A stretch of DNA of 64,000 nt from positions 1,810,630 to 1,874,629 of the forward strand of contig JASAOG010000080.1 of assembly GCA_030265305.1 (NCBI GenBank). Reading direction: 5' to 3'. The notes beneath the pieces are model-generated. The model worked only from the letters and a program-made list of their open reading frames with translations. It made no database searches and was not told the origin of the DNA. The DNA comes from Biomphalaria pfeifferi. Taxonomy: Eukaryota. Shown piece after piece: positions 16,990 through 64,000 of the stretch (its first letter is position 1; each line of letters begins with the position of its first letter). A program made the translations under genes and the position numbers.

Positions 16990-17450
16990 GGCTTCGATCG
17001 GCCTTGAATTGTGTATGTTTATAGACAGCAAACTTCTTAGGTTCATACAGAGAGAACTGAAACTGCATGTTGTTAATTTTTGATGTCAAATGAAGATAAT
17101 TCATTCTACCAAAGTCAGCTATAAAACAAGGAAGCTGAAAAGGGGAAATTGAAAACAAGGCTGTCCACATATAATAATTTCAAATCCATGGGCACCAGCT
17201 GGGAAGACGCTGTGTGGAAGTCATCTTTGACCTATCTCTGTTTAGAGAGCTTACCACCCTAAGCACCGAACAGTGCTGGAGGACCTAAGGTCTTAATCTA
17301 AAAAAAAAAACAGGAACATTCTAAAATACTTGCTGTCTCTTGAACATAGTACTCTCAGTTTGACATCCAAGAACTTTTCCATAATACTTCATTTCTATTT
17401 ACTTTGACGCTCTGAAGTCTAGGATTGTTCAATGAAAACTAAAAGATTGA
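16990..17450 (+). mobile_element. RTE-like LINE 3' end (ORF2 tail ...IHGHQLGRRCVEVIFDLSLFRELTTLSTEQCWRT* plus 3' UTR)
   Basis: Tail ends ...ggaggacctaag, like the copies at 32760 and 43830. Its 3' UTR forms the left arm of the inverted repeat. Confidence 0.55.
17281..17447 (+). repeat. Inverted repeat, left arm (about 165 bp, near-perfect)
   Basis: Reverse complement of 18001-18167 reproduces 17282-17447 almost base for base. Confidence 0.85.
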
Positions 17451-17643
17451 GAAGTAATGTATTGGATAATTTAACTTATATGTAAGGCAAATTCTAAACT
17501 TGGGATTATCCTATTTACAAGAGCACAGATCTAAGTTTGGTATTTTGACTATTTGAATAAAATGTTAGAAATTATAAATAAGTATTAATACATTTGCTAT
17601 ATATGAAATTGGGATTATGAATGTCTTTGTTTCTTGATGTAAG

Positions 17644-17761
17644 GATAAATGAACTCGCCTCACAGACAACTAGTGAATCTCTGAAGATCCCAAACAGAAA
17701 TCAACTTTTTGATGTCACATTTCTTATGATCATTAGCATATTGCAACAAAATGGACTAGGG
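17644..17761 (+). CDS. MED24: MED24 exon 12: RINELASQTTSESLKIPNRNQLFDVTFLMIISILQQNGLG
   Basis: Acceptor ttcttgatgtaag|. Donor GGG|gtaagt. Human SVRALLFDISFLMLCHVAQTYG. The exon sits between a 165-bp inverted repeat pair. Confidence 0.85.
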
Positions 17762-17839
17762 GTAAGTTTGGAATTTATTATTTACTGTAGTTGTATTTTT
17801 GAAGTTGGCAGTTATTTTTTTTTTAGGCAAGCAATCTTT

Positions 17840-17980
17840 AAAACTAAAGAACTTATAATAGATTTTAGAAAGAAAAAACAAACTATACGTGAACTGCAAA
17901 TAAACACTACATCTATAGAACAAGTAAAGGCATATAAATATCTAGGCGTTATCATCAACAACAAGCTTTCATGGTAAGAC
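17840..17980 (+). mobile_element. Reverse-transcriptase fragment (…IDFRKKKQTIRELQINTTSIEQVKAYKYLGVIINNKLSW)
   Basis: KYLGV...L.W is a non-LTR RT motif. Sits in MED24 intron 12. Confidence 0.5.
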
Positions 17981-18000
17981 CACCTTGGAACTCAATCTTT

Positions 18001-18961: not shown

Positions 18962-19118
18962 GTAATAATAATAAAGTATTTAGATTAAAGGAGATTGCTG
19001 GCTTCTACTTAAGACTCAATGATAAAATCTTTCATTTTTGTTAACTGACAAACTTGACATTTCATCTAGAAGAATTAATTAGAATACGTTTTCATTACCC
19101 TGTTTCCAATCATTGCAG

Positions 19119-20331: not shown

Positions 20332-20569
20332 TAAACAACCCATTCAAGCCATCATTGACAACATCATCTATGACATACTTCCTGAGGGCCATCCCCAAAG
20401 ACCAATAAGACGCTACCAGCTGTCCAGCAAGAAGCTGACCAGTGAGATCATGAATGAGACCCTCAAAGATTCGTTCCATCGAGGCTGGCTGAGCATGGCT
20501 TCTTTACACACTCTGGAACAGCTGTTGGTCTTGAGAGGTCCTGACTGGTTCTGTGCTGAGATGGTGGAG
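20332..20569 (+). CDS. MED24: MED24 exon 16: TKQPIQAIIDNIIYDILPEGHPQRPIRRYQLSSKKLTSEIMNETLKDSFHRGWLSMASLHTLEQLLVLRGPDWFCAEMVE
   Basis: Acceptor ttcatacaaag|. Donor GAG|gttggt (weak). Human LEKGWVDSRSIHIFDTLLHMGGVYWFCNNLIKE. Confidence 0.8.
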
Positions 20570-21164
20570 GTTGGTTGCTCTTTTAATTTCTAGCAATTTT
20601 TTAAAATTGTTTTTAGATATCCGCTAGTTACTGAATCGGAGGGGTTTCGGATCTTCAAAGAATTTAACCGTATATGCTCAGGAAATTCTATTTATGATGT
20701 AATTAGATATTCTCTTAGAATTTCAAGGGGTATGAAATAAACAATAGATGAAAGAGAAAAATGGATATATAAAAATACAAAACAAATTTTGTTGTGTTTG
20801 TGTTTGTTATGTTATCATATTGCCTTGAGCCTGCATTATATTTGTTAACAGTGCTTTATAAATGAAATTATTATTATTATTTCAGCTTTTGCATACAAAA
20901 TTACAATTTAAGCCTACCTGCGTTCATAGTACAGTATGAATTAATTACATGAATTTATTTTGGGGTCGCATCGGAATACTGAGTTTGTCAGATTATCAAG
21001 CATCATTTGTATAGTATACGCTAGTTTGTTGGGATGTGAGCTAATTTAGGACTACAGCAGTCAGATCATTGTTATAAATTAAAATTTGCAGTGAACCCAT
21101 CATTTTTTTTATAGTTTTGATGATTGTTAACATTTATTTATTTTATGAAGGTGTCATGTTGCCA

Positions 21165-21345
21165 GAACAATGACCAACCTCTTGTCTTTCCCCTACTAAC
21201 AGGCACCCATTTGAGTTTGGTGGACTCAGGGATGCCCAAAGAATTTCCTAGTTGAAAGTCCCAGTCTTCACAGAGTTTCAATCTCGGGACTTATCAGATC
21301 ATTTGCCAAGCGCTTTACCACTAAGCCACCATTGTATTAGCTTTA
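21165..21345 (-). mobile_element. tRNA-derived SINE, family B (copy 2), in MED24 intron 16
   Basis: About 80% similar to 7185-7392 (ggtggactcag.gatgcccaaaga.ttcc.agttgaaa). Confidence 0.55.
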
Positions 21346-27132: not shown

Positions 27133-27376
27133 TGCTTCTATTTTGGTAGCCATAGATTTCAACCTGGCCTGCTCTACAGCCGCTTCACCCTCAATTCTGG
27201 CAGCTTCTGCACGACTCTGTGCCTCAGCCTTAGCCTGACCGGTGCTCTCTACTGCAGCACTGTTGGCTTGGAGTTCCAAAAGTTCTTTTCTGGCTTTCTC
27301 TGCCTCAGCCTCATCAGTAATCTTCTGGCGCTCAAGTCTGCCTTTAGCTTCCTGTTCAAGACGTTCAGCTTCATGT
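27133..27376 (-). CDS. MVP: MVP exon 13 (cap-helix coiled coil): [81 protein letters not shown]
   Basis: Acceptor tgttttag|. Donor GCA|gtaagt. Human [83 protein letters not shown]. Confidence 0.9.
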
Positions 27377-28027
27377 CTAAAACAAAAAATAAATTCACAT
27401 CAAAGTTGTAATACTTTAATGGAGGAGAGGGAGAGTCAATTTTACAATTTACTTTTGTTTTCTAGAATAGAATTTTAAATAAAGGTGGTTAGTCATTTTT
27501 ACTATTTGGTCAGCAGGTAAGTGCAACAACACAGGATACAATGCATTAAATTCCATGCATTTTTTCTTTCATGAAAAGCATAAAAACAAAAAAAGAATCA
27601 GCCAATTATGTCAACAAAAAAACAAATTCATTACAAAAAAAAACATGTTTAATATATTTTGTTTTATGCAATATAAATTTGAACAAAATGTTTTCCAAGT
27701 TAGCACGCCTAAAGGTAATAGTGTTAATACAAATCTGATATGGTCTTTTATTAAGACCAAAATGGCCACCTATAGCATCAAGGATGAAGGGGATCTAAAC
27801 AAATGGTATGAGGGTGGGGCCCAACAAGCATGTCACATAGCTTCTAGAATAGAAACTACATAAACTATTAAGAATTACATGAACTCAATTTCAGTTTCAT
27901 TTTAGTTTTGGCTAACAAGAAATCTAAAATGAAGGTCAGAATTTTAAACATTTCTTAACATTAAACATTGACTTCCAAATACCTGGCAGCATACACAAAA
28001 AAAAAAAAATGTTGGAAACATATGTAC

Positions 28028-40700: not shown

Positions 40701-42331
40701 AGATAGAATTGAAGATGCGGAAGATTTTCGCTCAAGTTGGCAAGGGTTTTGATTCCGGGCGGGACTCGGCGCTAAGCGTCTTCTGGCCTTTTTCTCTTAG
40801 TAATAAGAGAGAATTTTAAAAAGGTTAATATTGATGTGTTTTCTTTCAGCGCGCACTAATCATCCTAAAAAAAGTAGAGGGCCATGTTTAATCTAATAAT
40901 AAAGAAACAGCCCTGGCCAATAGTACGCCTACATATTGCGCACGTACGTCTGTATGGGCGTGATCTTTTTAAAAATATTCTTCCTGTTAAGTAAGACGTC
41001 TCTGTCGTTGACGTTTTTTGTCACAAAGAAGTCTCTAATATAAAGTGCCATTGGATGAAGAAATTCGACTATTCTGAGACCACACAAAAATAAAAATCCA
41101 GAAGAATCACACTCAAATGTTTTCTTGAAAACGTTTTGACCAATATTGTTGCACACGGTGCCTTGCTAAAAGCGGTGAAAGGTCTTATTAGAAGATAACA
41201 CACCGTCTCCTACTTAATTAAGATATTTTAATTTTTGAAAATGTAATTTTCTAATATACAAATAAATTACACTGAAAATAAAACATTTTTTCGCAGCCGT
41301 CTCTCATTGTTGCTAGTTGGTCGTTGACTTGTCGCTACAAACAGCTAGTTCAAGTGAACCAATGAAGGCGTTTTATATTTTTACTAAATAAGCTTTAAAT
41401 AACTTGAACAAACCTCTTATGTGAACGAAAAATCAAAATAAATAACTGTTATTACAATTTTCACAGATTTAATTTTAGAGATCTAATATTAATGAAATTT
41501 ACTGATATTTAAACGAAATTCAGCTCACCACAAAATAACGACTATATTCTTTCATGTCTCAATATTGTCTGACATTTTACATTTGCACTTCCGGTATGCA
41601 AATTTCATCCTCTTAAATGCATAACCACCAATCAATCGCTTTACCTCTTCTTACCTCAGCCTAGGGAACACACACACTCTATAACACCTTTTGTCAGGAA
41701 GTTGCTCCCCTCCCAATTCTATGTAGAACGTGACAATGTTTTAAAATTGACTTTCTAATTTCTTGATCTACTTACAGGGCGGGCTATTCGACTCGAAACA
41801 AATAGTACAAACAACCTGCGAAAATTCAAGATCAGGAAATAGTCGGCGTTTATGAAAAAATCCGTGGGGATCCCTCGCGCGTCGCTTTTTTTTTCTTAAT
41901 TTTCTTAATAATTTCTTATTGTACAAATATCGTCTGTCTCCCTCCCCCACCCCCCAGTTTTCAAAGGATAATGGAATCAGTAGAATTTAAATAAAATATT
42001 TAAGTTTTTTATTAAACCAAAAATTTAAACAAAAATTATTCTTGGTATAATGTTTTGGACGCCCCTTACATTCGGTCGCCTGCGTGCAATGCACACATTG
42101 CACAATAGGTAGTGGCGGCCCTGTCAAGACCATAGATCAAGACATTGGAAGACGATGCTCGCAATGTTTTCTTTATTAATTTTTTAAAAACTATTTAATC
42201 AATGTAGAGAGAGAGAGAGAGTAGTCCTTAAGGGAATGCAAGCACGACATGGCCTAAATTGTGCCAATGTGCCTAAAATCAAAATCAAATCAAATCAATA
42301 TACGTTATATCGTAGTTTGAGTTCAACCTCC

Positions 42332-42395
42332 CCCCCCCGAAATAAAATTCCCCCCCCCCCCCCCCCCGAAGGAGGGGGGGGGGGATCGGAATTTA
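42332..42395. repeat. Poly-C (18) / poly-G (11) palindromic tract
   Basis: cctcccccccccgaaataaaattcccccccccccccccccgaaggagggggggggggatcgg. Confidence 0.9.
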
Positions 42396-45405: not shown

Positions 45406-45704
45406 ATGGCATGTTCAGGAAGCAAGCCCAGTAAACAAGTAAAAGCCAGATTGGATTCCTTCGTGCTAGCATTAACGAAAAAAGGCATCAAGCTTCTAGC
45501 TATGGACTTTGACAAAACCCTAATCGACATTCATTCTGGGGGAACGTGGACAGAGAGTGTTGACAAGCTCGTCCCTCACGTTCGACCGTGCATGAGAGAT
45601 TTGTTGGAAGGAGCAGTCAATAAGGGAATATTTGTAGCTATTGTAACATACCATCGACAAGGATGGCTCATCAAAGATTTGCTTCACAAAGTTTTGCCAA
45701 AGAA
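45406..45704 (+). CDS. HAD-superfamily hydrolase-like protein, exon 1: MACSGSKPSKQVKARLDSFVLALTKKGIKLLAMDFDKTLIDIHSGGTWTESVDKLVPHVRPCMRDLLEGAVNKGIFVAIVTYHRQGWLIKDLLHKVLPK(K)
   Basis: Kozak gaaaATGG at 45406 (the ORF track starts at a weaker ATG, 45373). HAD motif I is DFDKTL (DxDxT). Donor AA|gtaagc at 45705. Local GC rise and a CCAAT box upstream. Confidence 0.65.
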
Positions 45705-47522
45705 GTAAGCTTTTACTTTAGACTTCAGATTCTAGTAATTATTAAATATTCTAGATCTAGTTTATATAGTTGTAAATAGTTTAATCATGAAAATTTTGAA
45801 AGTGAAGACGTTTATTTGTGTAACATTTTATTAAAAAAAACAACTAGAGATACTATACTATATATTAAATAATAATATATTATATATATATAATTATATA
45901 TAGATCTAGATCCCCTAGATTTATTCTATTCTATGTTATAATAATAAGGTCTAGATTATACTTCTAGAGTAGATCTAATCTTTTATAATTATAAAGTCTT
46001 TACTAATAATCAAAACTAAATAATTGTTCTTACTTGTCTTTTAAAAATAAAAAGAAATAAATGTAAAAACCTCATTAAGTTAGTGATTATGGTAGGACCC
46101 AGATCTAAGCAGTCATCTAACAGATTAACTTCAATTTTAAATTTTGGCTTTTCACAAATTTTGAAGATAATATGAAATATTTGGATACCTATCGAGACAA
46201 CATAAAAACCTTGTACAAGATACCTCCAAATGTCCACAAAAGAGATTGGATCCTAGTGCACTGATTATGCTTAGCATGAAACATGTACTGTACAAAAGTA
46301 ATTTAAAAGTATTTTTTGTTGTTAATGTTTGCATTCACTAGCAGAGGCACACAAGGTGAACAGGCCTTCTCAATAAATCCCTGACTTTAAAATCCTAAAT
46401 GGAGAATCATTGGCTTGATGGTTGAGCAGGCAGAAGAGGAAATTTTTTTTGAAGTTTGAAGATGAATACTTAACTGATTAACTGTTCTCAGCTAATTAGT
46501 GCTGACCATAAAAAAAACTGATTTAAAAAAAAAATTGACTACCATACTGTGGAAAAAATTTTTGTCTGTTTTCATGGAATTATACCAGGTAGCAATAGAG
46601 TTTCAACACCATTTCCTAGTAGAAAATACATATAAAATCTACCTCTTGATGACCTTTTTAAAAAATTAAGAAAAATCTAATTTGGAAAATTATCTAGAGC
46701 AAGTTATATATATATATATATATATACAATGTACATATCACAGGAAAGTCCTGGAATAGAATATTTAATAGCAAGATTATAAAAATGATGTTCACATTAA
46801 AATGACTAGGAAATGTCAATCATGAGACTCAACTTCGAAGTTTAATACATGATTTTTCCAAAGGTTTATAATTTTATTATCTCCTTCAGTGACTTTGGTT
46901 CATCTCATAGATAATCAGATGAAAGCCTGGTCATTGGAACAATGTCCCCCACACATTTTTTTTCCTTACAGCTTATGTGCCCAAAGGATTGATGCAGTTT
47001 GAGATCAGTGGCATCTCAGATTTTGCCATGGTTTAGCACTGTTGGTAGCAAGCTGCCTATGGTTCACTGGCTCCTGATTATTCTCAGGGTTGACTCCCAT
47101 ATTATATGAACAAATAGACTTATATGGGCTTTATATTAGAGCCTTTAAAATTATTTTTTTTTAATTTACTCCTTTAGTAGATTTTTTTTTTAAATTCTTA
47201 AAATCAAATACATCATTATTAGAAAACATTATGTTGTATTACATTCAGATCTTTTAACTCAGATTAGGACATAAATCTTTAAATTTTACTCTAAACAGAA
47301 TAAATCCAGCTGTAGACATTGCACCCACCCTTATGAAACTGTTAATCTTAGAATGCCTCAATTTCATTCACCTCAGATAGGCAACAACCTAGCATGATCA
47401 ACATGCAGTGTGATAGTGACCGTCTCTAGAAAGTTGTCATTTTACTGTATATTTCTCATTTGCATGCATTTTGGGTTTTACTTCTTCAATGTATTTTTTT
47501 TTTTTACTGTCAGATTCATATT

Positions 47523-47524
<2 letters not shown>

Positions 47525-47565
<41 letters not shown>
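47525..47565. repeat. (TA)n microsatellite in the HAD-like gene intron
   Basis: tatatatatatatatata... Confidence 0.95.
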
Positions 47566-47568
<3 letters not shown>

Positions 47569-47893
47569 CCATAGATTGAAAGGTCTGAAATGAAAGGGAT
47601 ACTTTACATTTACTTTTACTATATATATTTATATATATATGAATATATTTTTTTAGTGACTGATGGTAGGTTTTTAAAAAATGTGCTTGATAAATGAAAA
47701 CAATAATTGCCACAGGAGCTCTACAAACCTGCTAAAGCTTTCGTCCCATCTTCCCCTCCCCAGACATGAATATCTATGCTTATTCTCTTATCTGAGAGTT
47801 TGGCAGTCTTGTTTGTTTACATTCAATTGAATAATTCTCATTATACTGTTTTATTATTGGGTAAAATTAACTTTTTTTCGTTTGTATTTTCAG

Positions 47894-48215
47894 AGTCGCT
47901 AATAAAATCTATGTTCAAGGAAACACATCAGATTTCATGCAACGTCAGAGGTCACTAACTTCAGGGTTATCAGATTCTATTGCGGGAAGGTACGTTATGC
48001 CAGAGTTAAATGGCAAAGAGGCTCACATAACAGCTGTCTTAGAAGAGATCCAAAAGGAGCACAATGTCTCTTTGAAAAAGGATGAAATTCTTTTAATGGA
48101 TGATGACATGACTAATGTCCGCATTGCTTGCAACAATGGGCACTATGCCATGCTTGTCCAGCCATATGTTGACTATCCCACGTTTTCATCCTTTGAAACT
48201 ATGCTTGTACTTTGA
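47894..48215 (+). CDS. HAD-like protein, exon 2: (K)VANKIYVQGNTSDFMQRQRSLTSGLSDSIAGRYVMPELNGKEAHITAVLEEIQKEHNVSLKKDEILLMDDDMTNVRIACNNGHYAMLVQPYVDYPTFSSFETMLVL*
   Basis: Acceptor tgtattttcag|. In phase with exon 1; total 206 aa. HAD motif IV-like LLMDDDMTNV completes the fold only in the spliced model. TGA stop at 48213-48215. Confidence 0.65.
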
Positions 48216-53639: not shown

Positions 53640-54260
53640 GCTTCACTGTTGATTTTTTCCCAGGACCCCCTGCTATTTTTTCTTACTCTTAACAATATAA
53701 TGATATGAAGTTAAACGCTCCCCCATACATTTCTTTGACCATCTAATTCTAGCATCTATTACAGAAAACGATTTACAAAAGGTTAATAAGACTAATAGCA
53801 ATGTATGCAAGTGAGACCCGGTCACTGATAAAGACAACCGAAAATCTTCTGAATACTTGAGAGCAAAAAAATTCTAAATTCTTTTTAAAAACCTATGGTG
53901 CTATATAAGATGAAACAGGGTGGATGGCACGCATTAACCATGAGATGTATCAATTGATTGAAGACCCACCGATAGTGACAGAAATTGAAAAAAGAACAAA
54001 CTACGTTGGGCAGGTCACCTTGGAAGAATGTCAGACAACAGAGGAGCGAAAATTGTATACCGGCAAAAATCAAAGGCAGACCCCGAATGCGATGGATTGA
54101 TGATGTGGAGGCAGATCTACAACTGCTTGGGTTATGGCGTGGAGAAGAAAGGCTCAGGAGAGATCTGAATGGTGAGATGTGTTAAAGCAGGCCAGAGCCA
54201 GCCATGGACTGTAGCGCCACTGGGGTGGATGGACGGATTACATTGAATCGGACCAGCCCG
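53640..54260 (+). mobile_element. RTE-like LINE ORF2 C-terminal fragment (frameshifted) abutting array 2
   Basis: ORF 53985-54185: ...KIKGRPRMRWIDDVEADLQLLGLWRGEERLRRDLNGEMC is the canonical GRPR.RW.DD...DL tail. Confidence 0.65.
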
Positions 54261-54349
54261 TAAATTCGAGTATCACATCTCCTCCACTCCACCCCCACAA
54301 CTTTCATCCATTACAAGTCTTTTTTTCAATTTCGGCAGATGACTATTCA

Positions 54350-55288
54350 CTGTACTTTATTAATGGGGCTCAGTCACCGGTAGAAATTTGTAACCTCTCT
54401 TGGCTACGCTCATGGAATTAGGTGACTGTAGTTTGCTTTAGATTTTATATCGAAAATGGAAGTTAATCGTCAAAATCAACTGATTTGGGGGGGGGGAGGG
54501 TTTAAACTAAAAAATCTCTGGATTTTTTTTTTAACAAATTCAAAATCACCTTAGCTACGCTCATAGAATTTGGTGACTGTAGTTTGCTTTAGAATAATAT
54601 TGAAGAAAGAGGTTTTCAAACTCAAAATTCTCTGTAGGTTTTTTTTTTTAAACTTTAAAAAAAGCCCTCTGGAGGGAGGGGATTTAAACTCAAAACCCCC
54701 TTTGGCTCATAGCTTTTTAAATGCGTAATTTGCTTTTTTTTTTTATATTTAAGAGGTATTTTTTAGCTTCAAACCCCGTCGAAGGGGGGGGGGGGTAAAA
54801 TTAATTTTATATAATACAGAAGTTTTTTTCAAAAAAGAAGATGATTACGTCCTACGCGTAATGGCTACGCTCATAGCATTTTAAATGCGTAATTTTCTTT
54901 TTTATTATATTGAAGAGGTATATTTTTTCTATTCAAACTCCGCTGGAGGAGATTTAAACACAAAATGCCCTTCGGCTACGCTCATATTGCTATTTTTTAT
55001 ATTAAATAGGTGTTTTTTTTAGCTGCAAACTCCGCTGGAAGGGGGTTTTAAACAAAACCCATCTTTGCTACGCTCATAGAGTCAGGTGACTGATGTATGA
55101 ATAGTCTTATATTGAAGAGGAGGTTTTATCGTAAATTTCGGAGAGGGTTAAAATCAGAATCTTCCTTAGCTATGCTCTTGGAATTTGGGGATTGTCGTTT
55201 ACATTTTTTTCTTTTGTTTTATAGAAGAGGGGTGTTTAACTGCAACACCCCCCGGTAGGGGTGTTTTAAACTCAAAACCCCCTTAGCT
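54350..55288 (-). repeat. Minisatellite array 2 (same family as array 1, inverse orientation)
   Basis: Units ...ggctacgctcatag.attt.aaatgcgtaatttgc...aaactc are the reverse complement of the array-1 units. The boundary segment 54360-54460 is near-identical to the reverse complement of 43350-43450. Confidence 0.85.
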
Positions 55289-58190
55289 GCGCTGGGGCAA
55301 GTGATGGTCTAGTAAAATAGTCACTGAAAAGTTTTAATGTAGGCTATTTTGACAATGTTCATTCGATTTTAGCTTGTTGTTTATGGTTGTACCTAAATCA
55401 GGAGCGGACTGGCTATACCGGCATTCGGGCTAATGCCCGGTGGGCCGGTACCAAAATGAGTCGCCAGAGCCATCGAAAGGGCAGCATGAATGTAATAAAG
55501 TTTTAAAAGTTTTATATTCTCTTATAAAAGTAACCCTTTAAGAGTCGTGCTTTTTTAAAAATTTGTACAGACTCTACAGGTTAATACTTATTTAATCTAA
55601 CAAATTTTCTAAAATAATGTAATAGCCTACATCCGTAGACATTAGTAGGCTCCATCATTTTATAGCCTACACACTTAGCGATTAAAAAGCCTATGTTTCT
55701 TATAAAGATATAGAGTTCACTGTATGCATGCGTACAGTTATCGATACATTATCAAACTTAACATAATGACTTTGAGGACATGTCAGACTGGTGGCCGGTC
55801 ATTTCATCCTTGGTTACTTCATGCCGGACACCTCATCCCCAGTCATTTCATCCCCAATTAAATTTTGTTTTCTTTGTCATTGTGTAATTGTGCTGTTAAA
55901 TCTTTGCCTTTAAGTCCTTATTTCATCTAATAGGCTATAAACATAGTTTGTTTAAAATACCTTTTTATATTTTTGACTTGTTATTATAGTTTTTATAGTG
56001 TTTCCCCTTCTCTCTTCAGACTTGTTGAGAAATGAAAGAATATATTTCAATAAGTAGATCTATTGTAATGCGGAGTTTTGTATTTAGTTATATTGTTTCT
56101 GTTTCTTGTAGGGATGTCAATATTATCCTGCGCATATAGCGTGATCAAAGCCCAAGGTGTGGTGGAAGGAAAAATCTTTTGAGAGATAGAAGAACAATTT
56201 GAATAATTATGATCACGCCGCTCTGCGCTCATGATTTATCATCAAAGTCCAAGGTGCGCTGGGGCAAGTGATGGTCTAGTAAAATAGTCACTGAAAAGTT
56301 TTAATGTAGGCTATTTTGACAATGTTCATTCGATTTTAGCTTGTTGTTTATGGTTGTACCTAAATCAGGAGCGGACTGGCTATACCGGCATTCGGGCTAA
56401 TGCCCGGTGGGCCGGTACCAAAATGAGTCGCCAGAGCCATCGAAAGGGCAGCATGAATGTAATAAAGTTTTAAAAGTTTTATATTCTCTTATAAAAGTAA
56501 CCCTTTAAGAGTCGTGCTTTTTTAAAAATTTGTACAGACTCTACAGGTTAATACTTATTTAATCTAACAAATTTTCTAAAATAATGTAATAGCCTACATC
56601 CGTAGACATTAGTAGGCTCCATCATTTTATAGCCTACACACTTAGCGATTAAAAAGCCTATGTTTCTTATAAAGATATAGAGTTCACTGTATGCATGCGT
56701 ACAGTTATCGATACATTATCAAACTTAACATAATGACTTTGAGGACATGTCAGACTGGTGGCCGGTCATTTCATCCTTGGTTACTTCATGCCGGACACCT
56801 CATCCCCAGTCATTTCATCCCCAATTAAATTTTGTTTTCTTTGTCATTGTGTAATTGTGCTGTTAAATCTTTGCCTTTAAGTCCTTATTTCATCTAATAG
56901 GCTATAAACATAGTTTGTTTAAAATACCTTTTTATATTTTTGACTTGTTATTATAGTTTTTATAGTGTTTCCCCTTCTCTCTTCAGACTTGTTGAGAAAT
57001 GAAAGAATATATTTCAATAAGTAGATCTATTGTAATGCGGAGTTTTGTATTTAGTTATATTGTTTCTGTTTCTTGTAGGGATGTCAATATTATCCTGCGC
57101 ATATAGCGTGATCAAAGCCCAAGGTGTGGTGGAAGGAAAAATCTTTTGAGAGATAGAAGAACAATTTGAATAATTATGATCACGCCGCTCTGCGCTCATG
57201 ATTTATCATCAAAGTCCAAGGTGCGCTGGGGCAAGTGATGGTCTAGTAAAATAGTCACTGAAAAGTTTTAATGTAGGCTATTTTGACAATGTTCATTCGA
57301 TTTTAGCTTGTTGTTTATGGTTGTACCTAAATCAGGAGCGGACTGGCTATACCGGCATTCGGGCTAATGCCCGGTGGGCCGGTACCAAAATGAGTCGCCA
57401 GAGCCATCGAAAGGGCAGCATGAATGTAATAAAGTTTTAAAAGTTTTATATTCTCTTATAAAAGTAACCCTTTAAGAGTCGTGCTTTTTTAAAAATTTGT
57501 ACAGACTCTACAGGTTAATACTTATTTAATCTAACAAATTTTCTAAAATAATGTAATAGCCTACATCCGTAGACATTAGTAGGCTCCATCATTTTATAGC
57601 CTACACACTTAGCGATTAAAAAGCCTATGTTTCTTATAAAGATATAGAGTTCACTGTATGCATGCGTACAGTTATCGATACATTATCAAACTTAACATAA
57701 TGACTTTGAGGACATGTCAGACTGGTGGCCGGTCATTTCATCCTTGGTTACTTCATGCCGGACACCTCATCCCCAGTCATTTCATCCCCAATTAAATTTT
57801 GTTTTCTTTGTCATTGTGTAATTGTGCTGTTAAATCTTTGCCTTTAAGTCCTTATTTCATCTAATAGGCTATAAACATAGTTTGTTTAAAATACCTTTTT
57901 ATATTTTTGACTTGTTATTATAGTTTTTATAGTGTTTCCCCTTCTCTCTTCAGACTTGTTGAGAAATGAAAGAATATATTTCAATAAGTAGATCTATTGT
58001 AATGCGGAGTTTTGTATTTAGTTATATTGTTTCTGTTTCTTGTAGGGATGTCAATATTATCCTGCGCATATAGCGTGATCAAAGCCCAAGGTGTGGTGGA
58101 AGGAAAAATCTTTTGAGAGATAGAAGAACAATTTGAATAATTATGATCACGCCGCTCTGCGCTCATGATTTATCATCAAAGTCCAAGGTG
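55288..58190 (+). repeat. Macrosatellite: 967-bp unit in 3.0 near-identical tandem copies
   Basis: Unit starts (tgcgctggggcaagtgatggtctag) at 55288, 56255 and 57222. Identical 61-aa minus ORFs recur at 967-bp spacing. Array ends at an internal sub-repeat around 58190. Confidence 0.95.
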
Positions 58191-58549
58191 TGGTGGAAGT
58201 AGTGGAAATCTTTTGAGAGATGAGAACGATTAGTATACTTATGATCTTGCCGCTAATAACTTATCTCACTTTATTTGTCAATCGTTCTTTCTTAAATATG
58301 AGCGTGTCATTTTAAACCCAAATATAACGTTTTATTTATTCTAATAAATGCTGAGTTTAAGAAATACGCAACACTTGCCAAGAAATTATAAATGATGTAC
58401 AGCAATACGAATCAAAGAATCGTCTTCTGTATCTACTAGTAATAGATTATCTTATTGATTTCAATTAACACGCAAAAACAATTTTTACGTTAGCTCTATA
58501 TCTATAAATGTTTTTTTTTTAAATTTTTAATGACATTATATTCTAATTT

Positions 58550-60000
58550 ATTAATGTGTAATTCTTTTTGTCATATAAATAAAAATAAATCTATGAAATA
58601 TTGTTAATTTCATACTTTTTACAATTATTATTTGATGGATTAGAGGATGAAATGACCAGGGAATGAAGTGACCAGGGGATGAAATGCCCGGGAACTGTCT
58701 GACTATTGAATGCCCATCATATGATATACAATGCTCAGGTCGATTTTGACACCCAGTCCGCCTCTGACCTAGATGTTTATATTCTTTCACTTGGTCTACT
58801 GTTTGGTTGTTGATCTTAATCTCTGCAATATATTCTTAATGTTCTACAATCATTTCTTAAGCTTCATGAAAATTCAAAAGTCTATGCTTCATTGGTAGAA
58901 AAGTGTTAATTGTTCAATGGTACAGACTGTGTTGTCATCTGCGTTAAAGCTGATGATGGATGTGTCCTCAGCCAAGTTAAGGATGGAAATATCCAAAACT
59001 GGTGAAAGAAACAACAAGACATGACCATTCCCTTTTATATATTGTGGGCATTTTATCAGAATGTTTAGCTCCACGCTTGCGTATGTTTGTTAATATTAAA
59101 ATCAGATAACTTTTTTTTATGTCGTTGAGAAGTCAAAGAATAATAGGCCTACTCTAAAATCGTTTTTCTGAATGTCAAGATGATGGTATAGACTATCCAG
59201 CATCTTTGGTACTTCTTGATGGTTTGTATGCAAAATGGTGAGGGTCGATGTGTTTCTTCTTCCAATAATAATAATTTTTCCAAGCACTTCATTAAAATCG
59301 GGACATAGGTCTTTGTTAGAAACAATGATTTTTTTTTGGGGGGTACTGGTATTATTTCTGATGTCTTACAAATTGTAGATATTTTGTGCATTTTTGCTAG
59401 GACCTGTTGACTATACCACTGGAGACAGCTGTTCCCAAAAACGCTTTACTAGCTTCCTACCTAATTTGTCGGGTAGCAAGGCTTTGGTTGTGTTTGTTTG
59501 AACATTTTTAACTTTCTAGTGTAACAAACAATTCTTACGATTGGTTTAAGTTGATGTTGTCAAAGTTGTGGCAGTAAAAATAACTGTGAAATCATTTAAT
59601 TCGTTTACAATTTTTTTTTGTCAGCAACACTCTCTTAGCCAGTAATTTGTTTCAAGCAAACTCAACAAGTTATTTTTCTGGAAAAAGCTTTAAATTTTTT
59701 TGCTAAAATATATTTCTTCAAATAATTTCTTTTTAAGAGGTTTATTGGCTGACATGAATTAAAAAGGACTGCATTTGAACATTCTTTAATATAGTATCAC
59801 ATCCTTGATTTCTTTGGTCATCCAAAGTTTATTATTACTGAATGTTCTAATTGTCTTTTTGTGGATATAAGAATTGACGGTTGTGGTAAGTTCAACTATT
59901 TCAGGGCAGTTGTCAACAAAAATATCCCAATATGTCTGCACAAGACAACTTTTTAACTGCAAAATAGCATCGTCAGACCCAGACTGGATGGACTGCAATT
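58550..60000 (-). mobile_element. Degraded non-LTR (CR1/jockey-like) reverse-transcriptase fragment
   Basis: Minus ORFs in order: ...SNNKLWMTKEIKD (NKPWF-like linker), ...IIPVPKKK...RP (RT domain), ...ISFNADDNTV (F/YADD motif C), ...EYKHLGQ (KYLG-like). Many stops. Confidence 0.55.
58620..58800 (-). repeat. Partial inverted copy of the 967-bp unit
   Basis: ggatgaaatgaccagggaatgaagtgaccaggggatgaaatgcccgg... is roughly the reverse complement of the unit segment ccggtcatttcatccttggttacttcatgccggacacctcatcccc. It also shares cagtccgc...tcgattttg. Confidence 0.5.
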
Positions 60001-62018: not shown

Positions 62019-64000
62019 TCTGTAAATAATGTAATAATATCAATATCTTTAATATCAATAATAAGCCTTGATCCTGGTGGTGCCAACAAAGGACTATTAG
62101 CTCATATTTACAATAATAATAATAATATTGTAAAAATAAGGAATAAAATGGTATAAATTTTTTTTGATGAATTTGATAACTGAGCCTAGACCTACAAATT
62201 CTATAAATACAAGTAAATGCCAAGTAAAAACTAGCTTGATGGAGAAAAAGCACGTTTTTCAAGAAATCTCAAGTTTCATTGTGCATAACATGTAGCTACA
62301 GACTATATCCTGGATCTTCCAATGTTGCATCTTTAGTAAATATTGAAAGATTAAGTATAGAAAGTAAGTATAGAGCTCCACTAAAAACTTTGGATACAAG
62401 AATGTTGGAATGATTTGAAAAAATTAAAATGCTACAAATAAATAATTATGTTGTTTTTTAAAATATGCCTCAGTTCCTGCTAGATATAATCATGCTTCAA
62501 ATAAACCTGATAGTCTTTTATTTTGACAAAGTTGACAGCGTCTACACAAAGTAAAGCTTTGGTTCTATGTCAATTTTTTTTTGTATAAACAATATTCATT
62601 GGTATATTAAAATGGTTAAAGCAGTGGGAAGCAAAAACACTACCAGTGCTTATCCCAAAACAAGAAAAAAAGTGATCAAGTGGTACCTCTCAGACTTACT
62701 GCTTGTCTTAATTCATAATTTAAAAAAAAAAAATAGGAGAGTTTGATATATATATAATAGCTACCACAGTTCTGCTTTTTAAAAATACTCCAGTGATAGT
62801 TAACGAAAGTTCTTTTTCAAAAGTTAACCATTAAAAAAAAAAAAAGCAAAACATTTGTGTATGTTCAAGTTGTATGGCCATGTCACAGGGTTCTAAGAGC
62901 CTGAAAAGAGCTCTCTCTCTCTGTGAAGGTACAGTATCAGGGGAAAAAAAAGGAAGCCAAAAGAAATAATTGGGAATTGACACAAAGGGATACATGGCCC
63001 TTACTTTGGATGAGACACAAAGATTAAATTGTAGTGTGCCAAGTTTCCAGCATTAATTTATGCTATAATAACATTTAATAACTTTATCAAACCTTTTCTA
63101 AAACCCATGCAGCATCTTCTATTGCTCTTTCAATGATCATTGCTATTCTCTCTTTATCTGTTTCATCCTCATGACTTTTGAAGGCCTGTGAACGGAAAAG
63201 ACTCAAGCTAAAAAAAAAAATATGTAACTTAATGAGCAAGATTTATTGGAGATACATGTGTGCTTGATTTGGCTAAGAGCAAATAAAACTATTTGCATTG
63301 TCAATAGTTTACTTTGTAAACATTTGTACATTTTTTTGTACAATGTAGCCAAAACAATGCATCATCTCATCTCTGCCCATGGTCCCTTCTGGGGCATAGG
63401 CCACCAACCAGACCTGGAGAACCACTACCACCATGGAAAAACTCCAGGTATTCATCAATAACTGCAGGATGAAGATTCTTAAGATCCACAAAACAATGCT
63501 CTGTCAATAACAGCCATTACTGTACAATTGGTAACACGTATACTGTACAAATATCTCTCCGATAACACAGTTCCGCCGTATCAACTCTTGCACTGGCCTC
63601 TTCGTCCCGTTTCGGGCTTGCACTGGGTTCAACAGTTCAGGACTGACTTCACACACTAGGCTTGTTGTGTCGGACTCAATCGCAGACCAAGATCAAGATG
63701 CCGTTTGTCTCAACTGTATTTAATAGTGCTCCGCACTGAACCGTCGTAATGCTCCGTACAGAGCCACACCGCTGAACTGTGCTGTAGTCGACCATGTTCT
63801 GAACTCTTGTCGTGAACCTCCTTTCGTGAACCATCTTGACTGCGACACCTCCGCTCTTATATAGGGTCCCTACTGGCCTTCTCGAACTGGACAGAATGCT
63901 GCTCGACGTTTCTAGGTGGTCAGATGACTACAACTCTTGTGACGCTCCTGAGCTCTGTTCACGACGGCGATCCTTCCCAAACCGTCCTGTTGACACTCAA

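Follow-up and report, generated by a model that had tools for sequence, protein, structure and literature searches.

Among the closest described counterparts of the locus analysed here are microhomology-mediated tandem duplications (FoSTeS/MMBIR or MMEJ) that expand further by unequal crossing-over. The locus lies in Biomphalaria pfeifferi, in a 64-kb stretch of DNA that is referred to as the window in the following, and it shares with these duplications the single copy in a sister species, a novel junction with a microhomology of 2 bp, breakpoints that are unrelated to element boundaries, and junctions that are identical after an expansion from two to three copies. It differs in that the mechanism is here read from the junction only, at which a one-step triplication is indistinguishable from two steps. 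The single orthologous copy in a related species by which lineage-specific tandem segmental duplications are recognized is found in Biomphalaria glabrata. Alternative transposition of Ac/Ds elements in maize is another source of tandem duplications, and these have, like the present one, a hAT element at the duplication edge. Whereas such duplications are bounded by transposon termini, neither of the breakpoints described here lies at a terminus.

The transposon involved, here called T, has its counterparts in the non-autonomous hAT elements and hAT MITEs, such as maize Ds and the animal hAT-N elements. As in these, there are inverted repeats beginning with CAG, an 8-bp target-site duplication and inverted subterminal short repeats but no transposase gene, and the members of the family have just termini of about 50 bp in common. 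In contrast to typical hAT MITEs, the 5' terminus of T has a 38-bp palindrome that is missing from the 3' terminus, its subterminal repeats are placed asymmetrically (about 380 bp inside at the 5' end, about 60 bp at the 3' end), and an autonomous partner was not found. Transposon-derived satellites (such as the tandem repeats inside bivalve pearl/Helentron-related elements, Drosophila Tetris, DINE-TR1) likewise have units that consist mostly of transposon sequence, and the low copy number at the present locus resembles a proposed first stage of satellite birth. However, the unit described here has a non-transposon flank, and its three copies all sit at a single locus, where neither dispersal nor growth of the array is in evidence. 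The literature on Biomphalaria satellites and tandem repeats, and on the inverted-repeat sequence of T, yielded nothing relevant.

The triplicated unit and its breakpoints

A preliminary description of this DNA reported three head-to-tail copies of a 967-bp macrosatellite with essentially no divergence, and this proved to be exact. On the forward strand, a period of 967 bp is kept over 55288-58190 with 0 mismatches (2903 bp, or 3 x 967 + 2, which makes 3.002 copies), which gives units at 55288-56254, 56255-57221 and 57222-58188 in head-to-tail order; the extra 2 bp after the third unit are the TG microhomology. This count of three comes from one assembly of the window's own species, and beyond these copies there is no further one in the 64-kb window. 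Both internal junctions have the same sequence, AAGGTG|CGCTGG (junction sequence AAGGTGCGCTGGGG), and the junction 20-mer TCCAAGGTGCGCTGGGGCAA occurs in the window at 56248 and 57215 only. Each unit consists of 111 bp of flanking DNA and the first 856 bp of T. The flanking part is in turn composed of the tail of a repeat called M, a remnant of a LINE reverse transcriptase and an 8-bp target-site duplication. Three unrelated repeats are represented in the unit, which is no genetic element by itself. The array breakpoints are at no transposon end, as the left one lies 111 bp outside the 5' inverted repeat of T and the right one inside T. The breakpoint sequences share 2 bp (TG), or 6/8 if mismatches are allowed, and no target-site duplication surrounds the 967-bp units.

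The left breakpoint falls into repeat M. Copy 1 of M (54338..55314, forward strand) is built of internal tandem repeats of 90-160 bp, each with the end GGCTACGCTCAT, and its last 27 bp (GCTGGGGCAAGTGATGGTCTAGTA, 55288-55314) are the same 27 bp that open the 967-bp unit. The inverted copy M2 (43501-42444) is homologous to M1 through this tail, and because M2 has the identical tail, these opening 27 bp are counted as M. The array had been said to begin exactly at the end of a minisatellite array (array 2), which is only approximately correct, as M reaches 27 bp into the unit. In the B. glabrata orthologue, M extends past the tail. That M2 might carry a colinear counterpart to the entire unit was also considered and rejected, as the M1-M2 homology in sensitive blastn stops at the tail and a poly-C/G region, beyond which the two share just one 30-bp match (E = 0.006).

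That the unit has no convincing coding capacity, as noted before, agrees with the translations, in which no open reading frame is longer than 61 amino acids in any frame. A chimeric query of the stop-free stretches of the unit had no match at E <= 10 in a set of 5.8 billion proteins, and neither the reading frames of 61 and 79 amino acids nor P0001 and P0025 have an exact match on record in the contig index.

The transposon T, its insertion site and its family

T occupies 55399..58766 on the forward strand, which amounts to 3368 bp as found and about 1434 bp with the triplication collapsed. It is assigned as a putative non-autonomous hAT-type transposon from its inverted repeats, its 8-bp target-site duplication and its family in metagenome contigs. 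The terminal inverted repeats, CAGGAGCGGACTGG and CCAGTCCGCCTCTG, start with CAG and thus fit the (C/T)AG rule of hAT elements. The 5' repeat (CAGGAGCGGACTGG..., 55399..55450) recurs at 56366 and 57333 and includes the palindrome CCGGCATTCGGGCTAATGCCCGGTGGGCCGG (55418-55448, forward strand), whereas the 3' repeat CAGAGGCGGACTGGGTGTCAAAATCGACCTGAGC (58729..58766, reverse strand) is without the palindrome. The terminal 14 nt, CAGRRGCGGACTGG, are found at 55399, 56366 and 57333 on the forward and at 58753-58766 on the reverse strand and nowhere else in the 64 kb, with a chance expectation of 0.02. Further inside, the 5' subterminal block (55782..55855, forward strand, again at 56749 and 57716) has GTCAGAC followed by four sub-repeats of 15-16 bp, GGTCAYTTCATCC, and the 3' block (58645..58703, reverse strand) has three 16-bp sub-repeats and GTCAGAC (TRF period 16, 3.1 copies); about 75 bp of the former align inversely with the latter.

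These features account for several elements of the preliminary description. The internal sub-repeats exist, and the inverted fragment behind the array is real but short, consisting of the 3' inverted repeat of T and the subterminal 16-bp repeats. The configuration that was called terminal-inverted-repeat-like is a true one, formed by the 5' and 3' ends of T. T also contains an older direct repeat of 97 bp, R1 (56146..56242, forward strand, again at 57113 and 58080), with a partner, R2, that is 82 % identical to it and starts at 56243, 57210 and 58177; the complete R2 lies just past the array (58177..58254, forward strand), and the duplication breakpoint is 14 bp into R2. T has no open reading frame and is decayed.

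The left target-site duplication ACCTAAAT (55391-55398, again at 56358-56365 and 57325-57332) and the right one ACCTAGAT (58767..58774, forward strand) agree at 7/8 positions. They lie within the LINE reverse-transcriptase remnant, which is read on the reverse strand and has a left part, LGTTINNKLKSNEH (55355..55398), that includes the left target-site duplication and a right part (...FNADDNTV...VDQVKEYKHLG, 58767..59998) that was recognized by six-frame translation and tblastx. If T and one target-site duplication are excised in silico, a continuous LINE reading frame results in tblastx (IAEIKINNQTVDQVKEYKHLG|TTINNKLKSNEH), and this restored frame aligns across the excision junction with a paralogue at 17885-17983. 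The locus is intergenic repeat debris.

The family of T was traced in metagenome contigs. The pattern GGCGGACTGG-N12-36-ATGCCCGGTGGGCC matches 61 of these; in the negative controls, viral contigs and prokaryotic genomes, it had 0 matches each. MITEs that end in the 50-bp terminus of T are present in 59 eukaryotic metagenome contigs, and the termini of at least 40 metagenome elements have an identity of 84-96 % with the 5' terminus of T along a stretch of about 50 bp. The similarity sets in exactly at CAG, with base frequencies of 0.91-0.95 at -4 to -2 and about 0.3-0.4 upstream. An inverted partner terminus follows at a distance of 150-2470 bp in 29 contigs, and at least 12 members have perfect (8/8) target-site duplications, which tend to nTnnnnAn (T at position 2 in 7/12, A at position 7 in 7/12). 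A 2470-bp element in contig L016 that has the termini of T contains VTCERSFSALKRNKSHL, which may be the remnant of a hAT dimerization domain in a distant relative of T, as suggested by a sub-threshold match to Pfam PF05699 (E = 0.0037, 17.5 bits, cut-off 21.4). A SINE with a tRNA head was considered for the A-box-like GGCGGACTGG and rejected, as the motif is part of an inverted repeat for which both a partner in opposite orientation and a target-site duplication are present.

Orthologous loci and the origin of the array

The orthologous locus was compared in three B. glabrata assemblies. In L001 (26929-28805) and L003 (20048-21830), T is present at the orthologous site, and in both cases a single unit is found together with one inverted repeat at the 5' end and one at the 3' end of T; L002 has lost 1.6 kb there by deletion. 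The junction 20-mer is absent at all three loci. The R1/R2 pair is one copy in L003, and the single B. glabrata copy has extra segments of its own (233 bp and 390 bp). The window is 85-95 % identical to B. glabrata in the unit and 90-95 % in the flanks; as the two are similar, no special constraint acts on the unit. At sites where B. glabrata differs, the exons in the window agree with B. pfeifferi KAK0054161.1. A recent amplification had been suggested before, and the comparison bears this out, as the copies are identical to one another and the single B. glabrata orthologue has diverged by 5-10 %.

We think it probable that the array is a local and very recent triplication of repeat-derived DNA over the left end of T, which itself is old and non-coding. 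As the unit spans the left end of T and the inverted fragment is its right end, the arrangement represents ordinary structural variation and no RNA gene or satellite family. The first event that the locus shows is the insertion of T, then about 1.4 kb long, into the LINE reverse-transcriptase remnant before B. pfeifferi and B. glabrata split, an insertion that produced the 8-bp target-site duplication around an element with inverted repeats of about 50 bp and inverted subterminal 16-bp repeats at its ends. In the lineage of the window only, a segment reaching from the M tail, 111 bp left of T, to 856 bp into T was then duplicated in tandem. The anatomy of the junction suggests a replication template switch or microhomology-mediated end joining as the likely mechanism, and the 2-bp microhomology by itself is weak evidence for either. 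An unequal exchange, sister-chromatid or homologous, or slippage involving the two copies then present could have added the third, and this would result in identical junctions and copies that are still 100 % alike. The array would have no function of its own; the 3' end of T now faces three T 5' ends.

Several other origins have to be weighed against this triplication. An assembler might have over-expanded a repeat whose true copy number is one or two; the perfect identity of the three copies as well as the presence of at most one copy in the three B. glabrata assemblies would fit such an artefact. It is nevertheless improbable, as the copy number is integral, the copies are separated by clean internal junctions of one and the same novel sequence, and even two copies require a real junction; in addition, assemblers collapse tandem repeats more often than they expand them. 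Strong concerted evolution also yields zero divergence, and an old array could have been homogenized by gene conversion in B. pfeifferi and have collapsed independently to one copy in B. glabrata, where the collapsed R1/R2 of L003 and the deletion in L002 testify to an unstable locus. We regard this as quite unlikely, since it requires more events than a recent duplication, no trace of a junction is left at any of the three B. glabrata loci, and the one copy in L001 and L003 has the extra segments mentioned above. A driving role of transposition, in the form of self-insertion of the 967 bp, of alternative hAT transposition (reversed-ends or sister-chromatid) or of Helitron-like rolling-circle multimerization, is suggested by the hAT-type element with inverted repeats at the locus and by the tandem duplications that alternative Ac/Ds transposition can yield in maize. 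This is very unlikely, as each unit carries a non-T flank (M tail and LINE remnant) and no flanking target-site duplications, and T is decayed and non-coding. A non-autonomous transposon amplified in place had been proposed before; such a transposon is present, but it is not the unit, and because the unit starts 111 bp outside the 5' end of T and stops inside T, there was no transpositional amplification. A Helitron multimer (5' TC, 3' hairpin and CTRR, insertion at A|T) was also examined separately and rejected, as no hairpin precedes the CTAG at 55307-55310 (positions 20-23 of the unit) and the unit boundary lies inside the M tail that is common to M2.

The unit had been considered as a tandemly repeated ncRNA gene or a satellite, but it is hardly credible that it represents such a gene or belongs to a dispersed family of satellite DNA. 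The head-to-tail order and a whole-unit fold with z = -3.3 could be taken as signs of either, but this z-value is based on 20 shuffles only and the unit contains transposon palindromes, so the fold was not accepted as a sign of an RNA. The nested hairpin that had been described as stable is present at 55418-55448, but the fold of this region is not better than shuffles (z = -1.5), and the palindrome behind much of the local folding is a conserved part of the transposon terminus. At gathering thresholds 0 Rfam families were found in the 64-kb window; the Rfam search recommended for one unit was run in E-value mode and gave nothing credible (noise, best E = 2.2), and ARAGORN found 0 tRNA genes. 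Against a satellite family stand the patchwork composition of the unit from M tail, LINE remnant and T, its three copies with none elsewhere in the window, and the single copy of neutral-looking divergence in the sister species.

Significance of the locus

The broad biological weight of the triplication is small, as it adds another young tandem duplication in the repeat-rich intergenic DNA of a schistosome-vector snail, and T is another decayed hAT MITE. The locus may serve as a structural marker, as one, two or three copies may be polymorphic in B. pfeifferi, and it sets this species apart from B. glabrata. It is also a worked example in which what looks like a "macrosatellite with a terminal inverted copy" is better read as a segmental duplication over one transposon end.

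As a result of the triplication, non-transposon DNA (M tail, LINE remnant and target-site duplication) now lies twice between the 5' and 3' termini of a hAT-type element. It is conceivable, though doubtful, that an intermediate has been caught in the act here, in which the outermost, usable-looking ends would mobilize a 3.4-kb element that contains host sequence it has captured as well as a 967-bp tandem repeat in its interior, provided that a compatible transposase is active in Biomphalaria. If so, the locus would show how hAT MITEs gain foreign sequence and internal tandem repeats and how they seed satellites. Alternative transposition and rearrangements of the surrounding DNA could also be driven by the three 5' ends. 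For the family as a whole, the occurrence of the palindrome-bearing 50-bp hAT terminus in unrelated eukaryotic metagenome contigs hints at a hAT family that is widespread or horizontally spread and that may merit a proper census.

The array and its surroundings

Three head-to-tail 967-bp copies with essentially no divergence had been described at 55288-58190, and this is borne out: in a self-comparison at period 967, 55288-57223 and 56255-58190 are identical without a break, and the array has a length of 2903 bp (3 x 967 + 2) with 0 mismatches, on which a repeat search and blastn concur. It escaped TRF solely because the longest period of that program was 500. Two partial matches aside, blastn found no further unit copies elsewhere in the 64-kb window; it aligned unit positions 857-935 with 58175-58254, an 82 %-identical 80-bp internal repeat directly past the array, and 27 bp of the unit with 42470-42444. 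Open frames in the unit never exceed 61 codons. The array is intergenic, with LINE remnants all around, and lies between a two-exon FCP1/HAD-like gene (45406-48212, plus strand) and a minus-strand exon at ~63.1 kb, possibly of the LYR family (63087-63190); exons of the major vault protein occupy ~26-38 kb on the minus strand. The FCP1/HAD-like protein has two residues (L, N) as in B. pfeifferi KAK0054161.1, unlike the B. glabrata proteins; the DNA is thus of animal origin, from B. pfeifferi or a species very near to it.

The array does not start exactly at the end of a minisatellite array, as the preliminary description had it, since the first 27 bp of the unit still belong to M, a minisatellite-bearing repeat of ~1 kb with one copy at 54338-55314 (M1, plus strand) and a second, inverted one at 43501-42444 (M2, minus strand). 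The internal tandem repeats of M measure 90-160 bp and every one ends in GGCTACGCTCAT, and the homology between M1 and M2 extends through a conserved tail, GCTGGGGCAAGTGATGGTYTAGTA, which constitutes these 27 bp. In the B. glabrata orthologue, M runs on for at least 100 bp farther, through a poly-C/poly-G palindrome that is also present in M2 (42320-42385) and has been lost from M1. As the tail is common to M1 and M2 and M runs on in B. glabrata, the array starts inside M and not at an element end. Directly upstream of M, at 53924-54185 on the plus strand, there is a remnant of the C-terminus of another LINE ORF2 (...GRPRMRWIDDVEADL...). Beside M2, the minus strand at 42060-42123 carries CAGGGCCGCCACTACC and then the palindrome GTGCAATGTGTGCATTGCAC, a "CAGG plus hairpin" layout as in the terminus of the transposon T described below; a further hAT-like element may end here, and the window revealed no partner end for it.

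The transposon T and its relatives

The 5' terminus of T, CAGGAGCGGACTGG, lies within the unit at 55399, and the 3' terminus, which is CAGAGGCGGACTGG in reverse complement, extends to 58766. A search for the terminal 14-mer that tolerated up to 2 mismatches found only four sites in the window, three on the plus and one on the minus strand, where 0.02 would be expected by chance. T is directly flanked by the 8-bp sequences ACCTAAAT (left) and ACCTAGAT (right), and its two ends carry, in inverse orientation, GTCAGAC with three or four sub-repeats of 15-16 bp (GGTCAYTTCATCC) at 55782-55855 and 58645-58703. After excision of 55399-58774, the minus-strand translation reads IAEIKINNQTVDQVKEYKHLG|TTINNKLKSNEH and aligns in tblastx, across the join, with a paralogous LINE reverse-transcriptase fragment (IRELQINTTSIEQVKAYKYLGVIINNKLSW) at 17885-17983. 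This reconstructed empty site identifies 55399-58766 as a single insertion with an 8-bp target-site duplication. The inverted partial copy thought to close the array (58620-58800) is real inverted sequence, but judging from these alignments it is the end of T itself, composed of the 3' terminus and the subterminal sub-repeats. A LINE reverse-transcriptase fragment (ORF 17621-17977) is flanked by a 174-bp inverted repeat of 99.4 % identity (17279-17451, plus; 18164-17991, minus), interpretable as an inverted duplication or as a young structure of the foldback type.

JGI metagenome contigs were scanned with the pattern GGCGGACTGG-N12-36-ATGCCCGGTGGGCC, an exact match to the T orthologue of B. 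glabrata and one base off the copy in the window. It was matched in 61 contigs from several metagenomes (e.g. Ga0081606_*, Ga0209049_*, Ga0209453_*) and had 0 matches in IMG/VR viral contigs and in 596 Gb of prokaryotic genomes. Two of the 61 were left out by eye as GC-rich and chance-like, with long gaps in the match; the remaining 59 look eukaryotic (GC 38-43 %, split MAP-kinase exons, LINE and Harbinger remnants). Upstream of the motif the contigs are unrelated to one another in sequence, and conservation sets in abruptly from CAG (base frequencies 0.91, 0.95 and 0.93 at positions -4 to -2). An inverted partner, CCAGTCCGCCCCTG, follows 150-2470 bp downstream in 29 contigs, at least 12 of which have perfect 8-bp direct repeats directly outside the element, such as CTAACAAC, CTGGAGAC, TTAAGAAA and CGAAAATG. 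T shares with these MITE-like elements only the palindrome-bearing terminal ~50 bp, at 84-96 % identity; similarity limited to the termini is usual in non-autonomous transposon families. Its target-site duplication of 8 bp and inverted repeats of the CAG type make T a non-autonomous hAT-type element. The 2470-bp member contains a degenerate hAT C-terminal dimerisation motif (Pfam PF05699, E = 0.0037, under the curated threshold), and the link of T to a hAT transposase is no more than suggestive. The family carrying this terminus looks widespread, or horizontally spread.

Age and origin of the triplication

Three B. glabrata assemblies were reached via the cluster of the FCP1-like protein and compared with 10-kb flanks. 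The loci of GCA_025434175.2 and GCA_947242115.1 are colinear with the window, and each has one unit copy, one 5' and one 3' inverted repeat, and the same insertion site. In GCA_025434165.1, a 1.6-kb deletion at 18980/18981, equivalent to window 54478-56085, has removed most M repeats, the 5' end of T and ~690 bp of T, and the 3' inverted repeat is also missing. None of the three contains the junction 20-mer. Aligned identity to the window is 85-95 % in the unit, 90-95 % in the flanks and ~88-93 % in non-coding sequence, and no part of the unit is unusually conserved. As a single unit and T occupy the same site in B. glabrata, T, its inverted end and the older 97-bp direct repeat pair inside it (R1 56146-56242, R2 58177-58254) predate the species split; as the two colinear loci have one unit copy and none has the junction 20-mer, the triplication is limited to the lineage of the window. 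With 0 differences among the copies versus 5-10 % between species, it is far younger than the split, which agrees with the recent amplification first proposed. The B. glabrata T contains an insertion of ~390 bp (27267-27658 and 20387-20777 in the colinear loci) with short inverted ends, TTGTTGTAAC...GTTGCAACAG, that the window lacks at 55724/55725; a MITE probably inserted there independently, or the segment was excised in the lineage of the window.

The unit is a mosaic with arbitrary ends: at least 27 bp of M tail, a short LINE remnant with the left target-site duplication (111 bp in total including the tail) and the first 856 bp of T. The left-edge breakpoint is AGCTG|CGCTGG, the right-edge one AAGGTG|TGGTGG, and both internal junctions read AAGGTG|CGCTGG, so that the breakpoints share TG, or 6/8 bases when mismatches are tolerated. 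On the right, the break falls 14 bp inside R2. R1 and R2 (82 % alike) are both present in GCA_025434175.2 and GCA_025434165.1, and GCA_947242115.1 has one copy (about 21214-21290). As the pair has collapsed there and is also home to the triplication breakpoint, this is a locally unstable site.

Since the junction is off the transposon termini, lacks a target-site duplication and has microhomology only, replication template switching or microhomology-mediated joining is the best account of the first duplication. Copy three has the same junction and would have arisen by unequal exchange or slippage between copies one and two. The breakpoints do not fit transposition by self-insertion, alternative hAT transposition or Helitron-like multimers. 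Were the array ancient, it would have to have been homogenised in one lineage and reduced in the other, a scenario that requires more events and of which B. glabrata shows no trace. The copy number rests on one assembly, and an assembly artefact behind it is conceivable, which we consider quite improbable. The reading as a tandem RNA gene likewise finds no support: Rfam gave no match for the whole window at gathering thresholds and only noise for the unit in permissive mode (top match E = 2.2), ARAGORN found no tRNA-like gene, and the nested hairpin exists (55418-55448), but folding of its region gave no gain over shuffled sequence (z = -1.5).

Of the preliminary description, the recent amplification and a non-autonomous transposon with genuine inverted ends remain, whereas the unit itself is not a transposon and very probably not an RNA gene or a satellite family either. 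The locus is an ordinary young tandem duplication that overlaps an old hAT MITE at its 5' end. Nothing in the sequence of the locus demonstrates present mobility of T. Its outermost pair of ends today surrounds captured DNA from outside the element together with an internal tandem repeat, and the locus might conceivably represent the type of intermediate invoked for the birth of MITE-borne tandem repeats and satellites.
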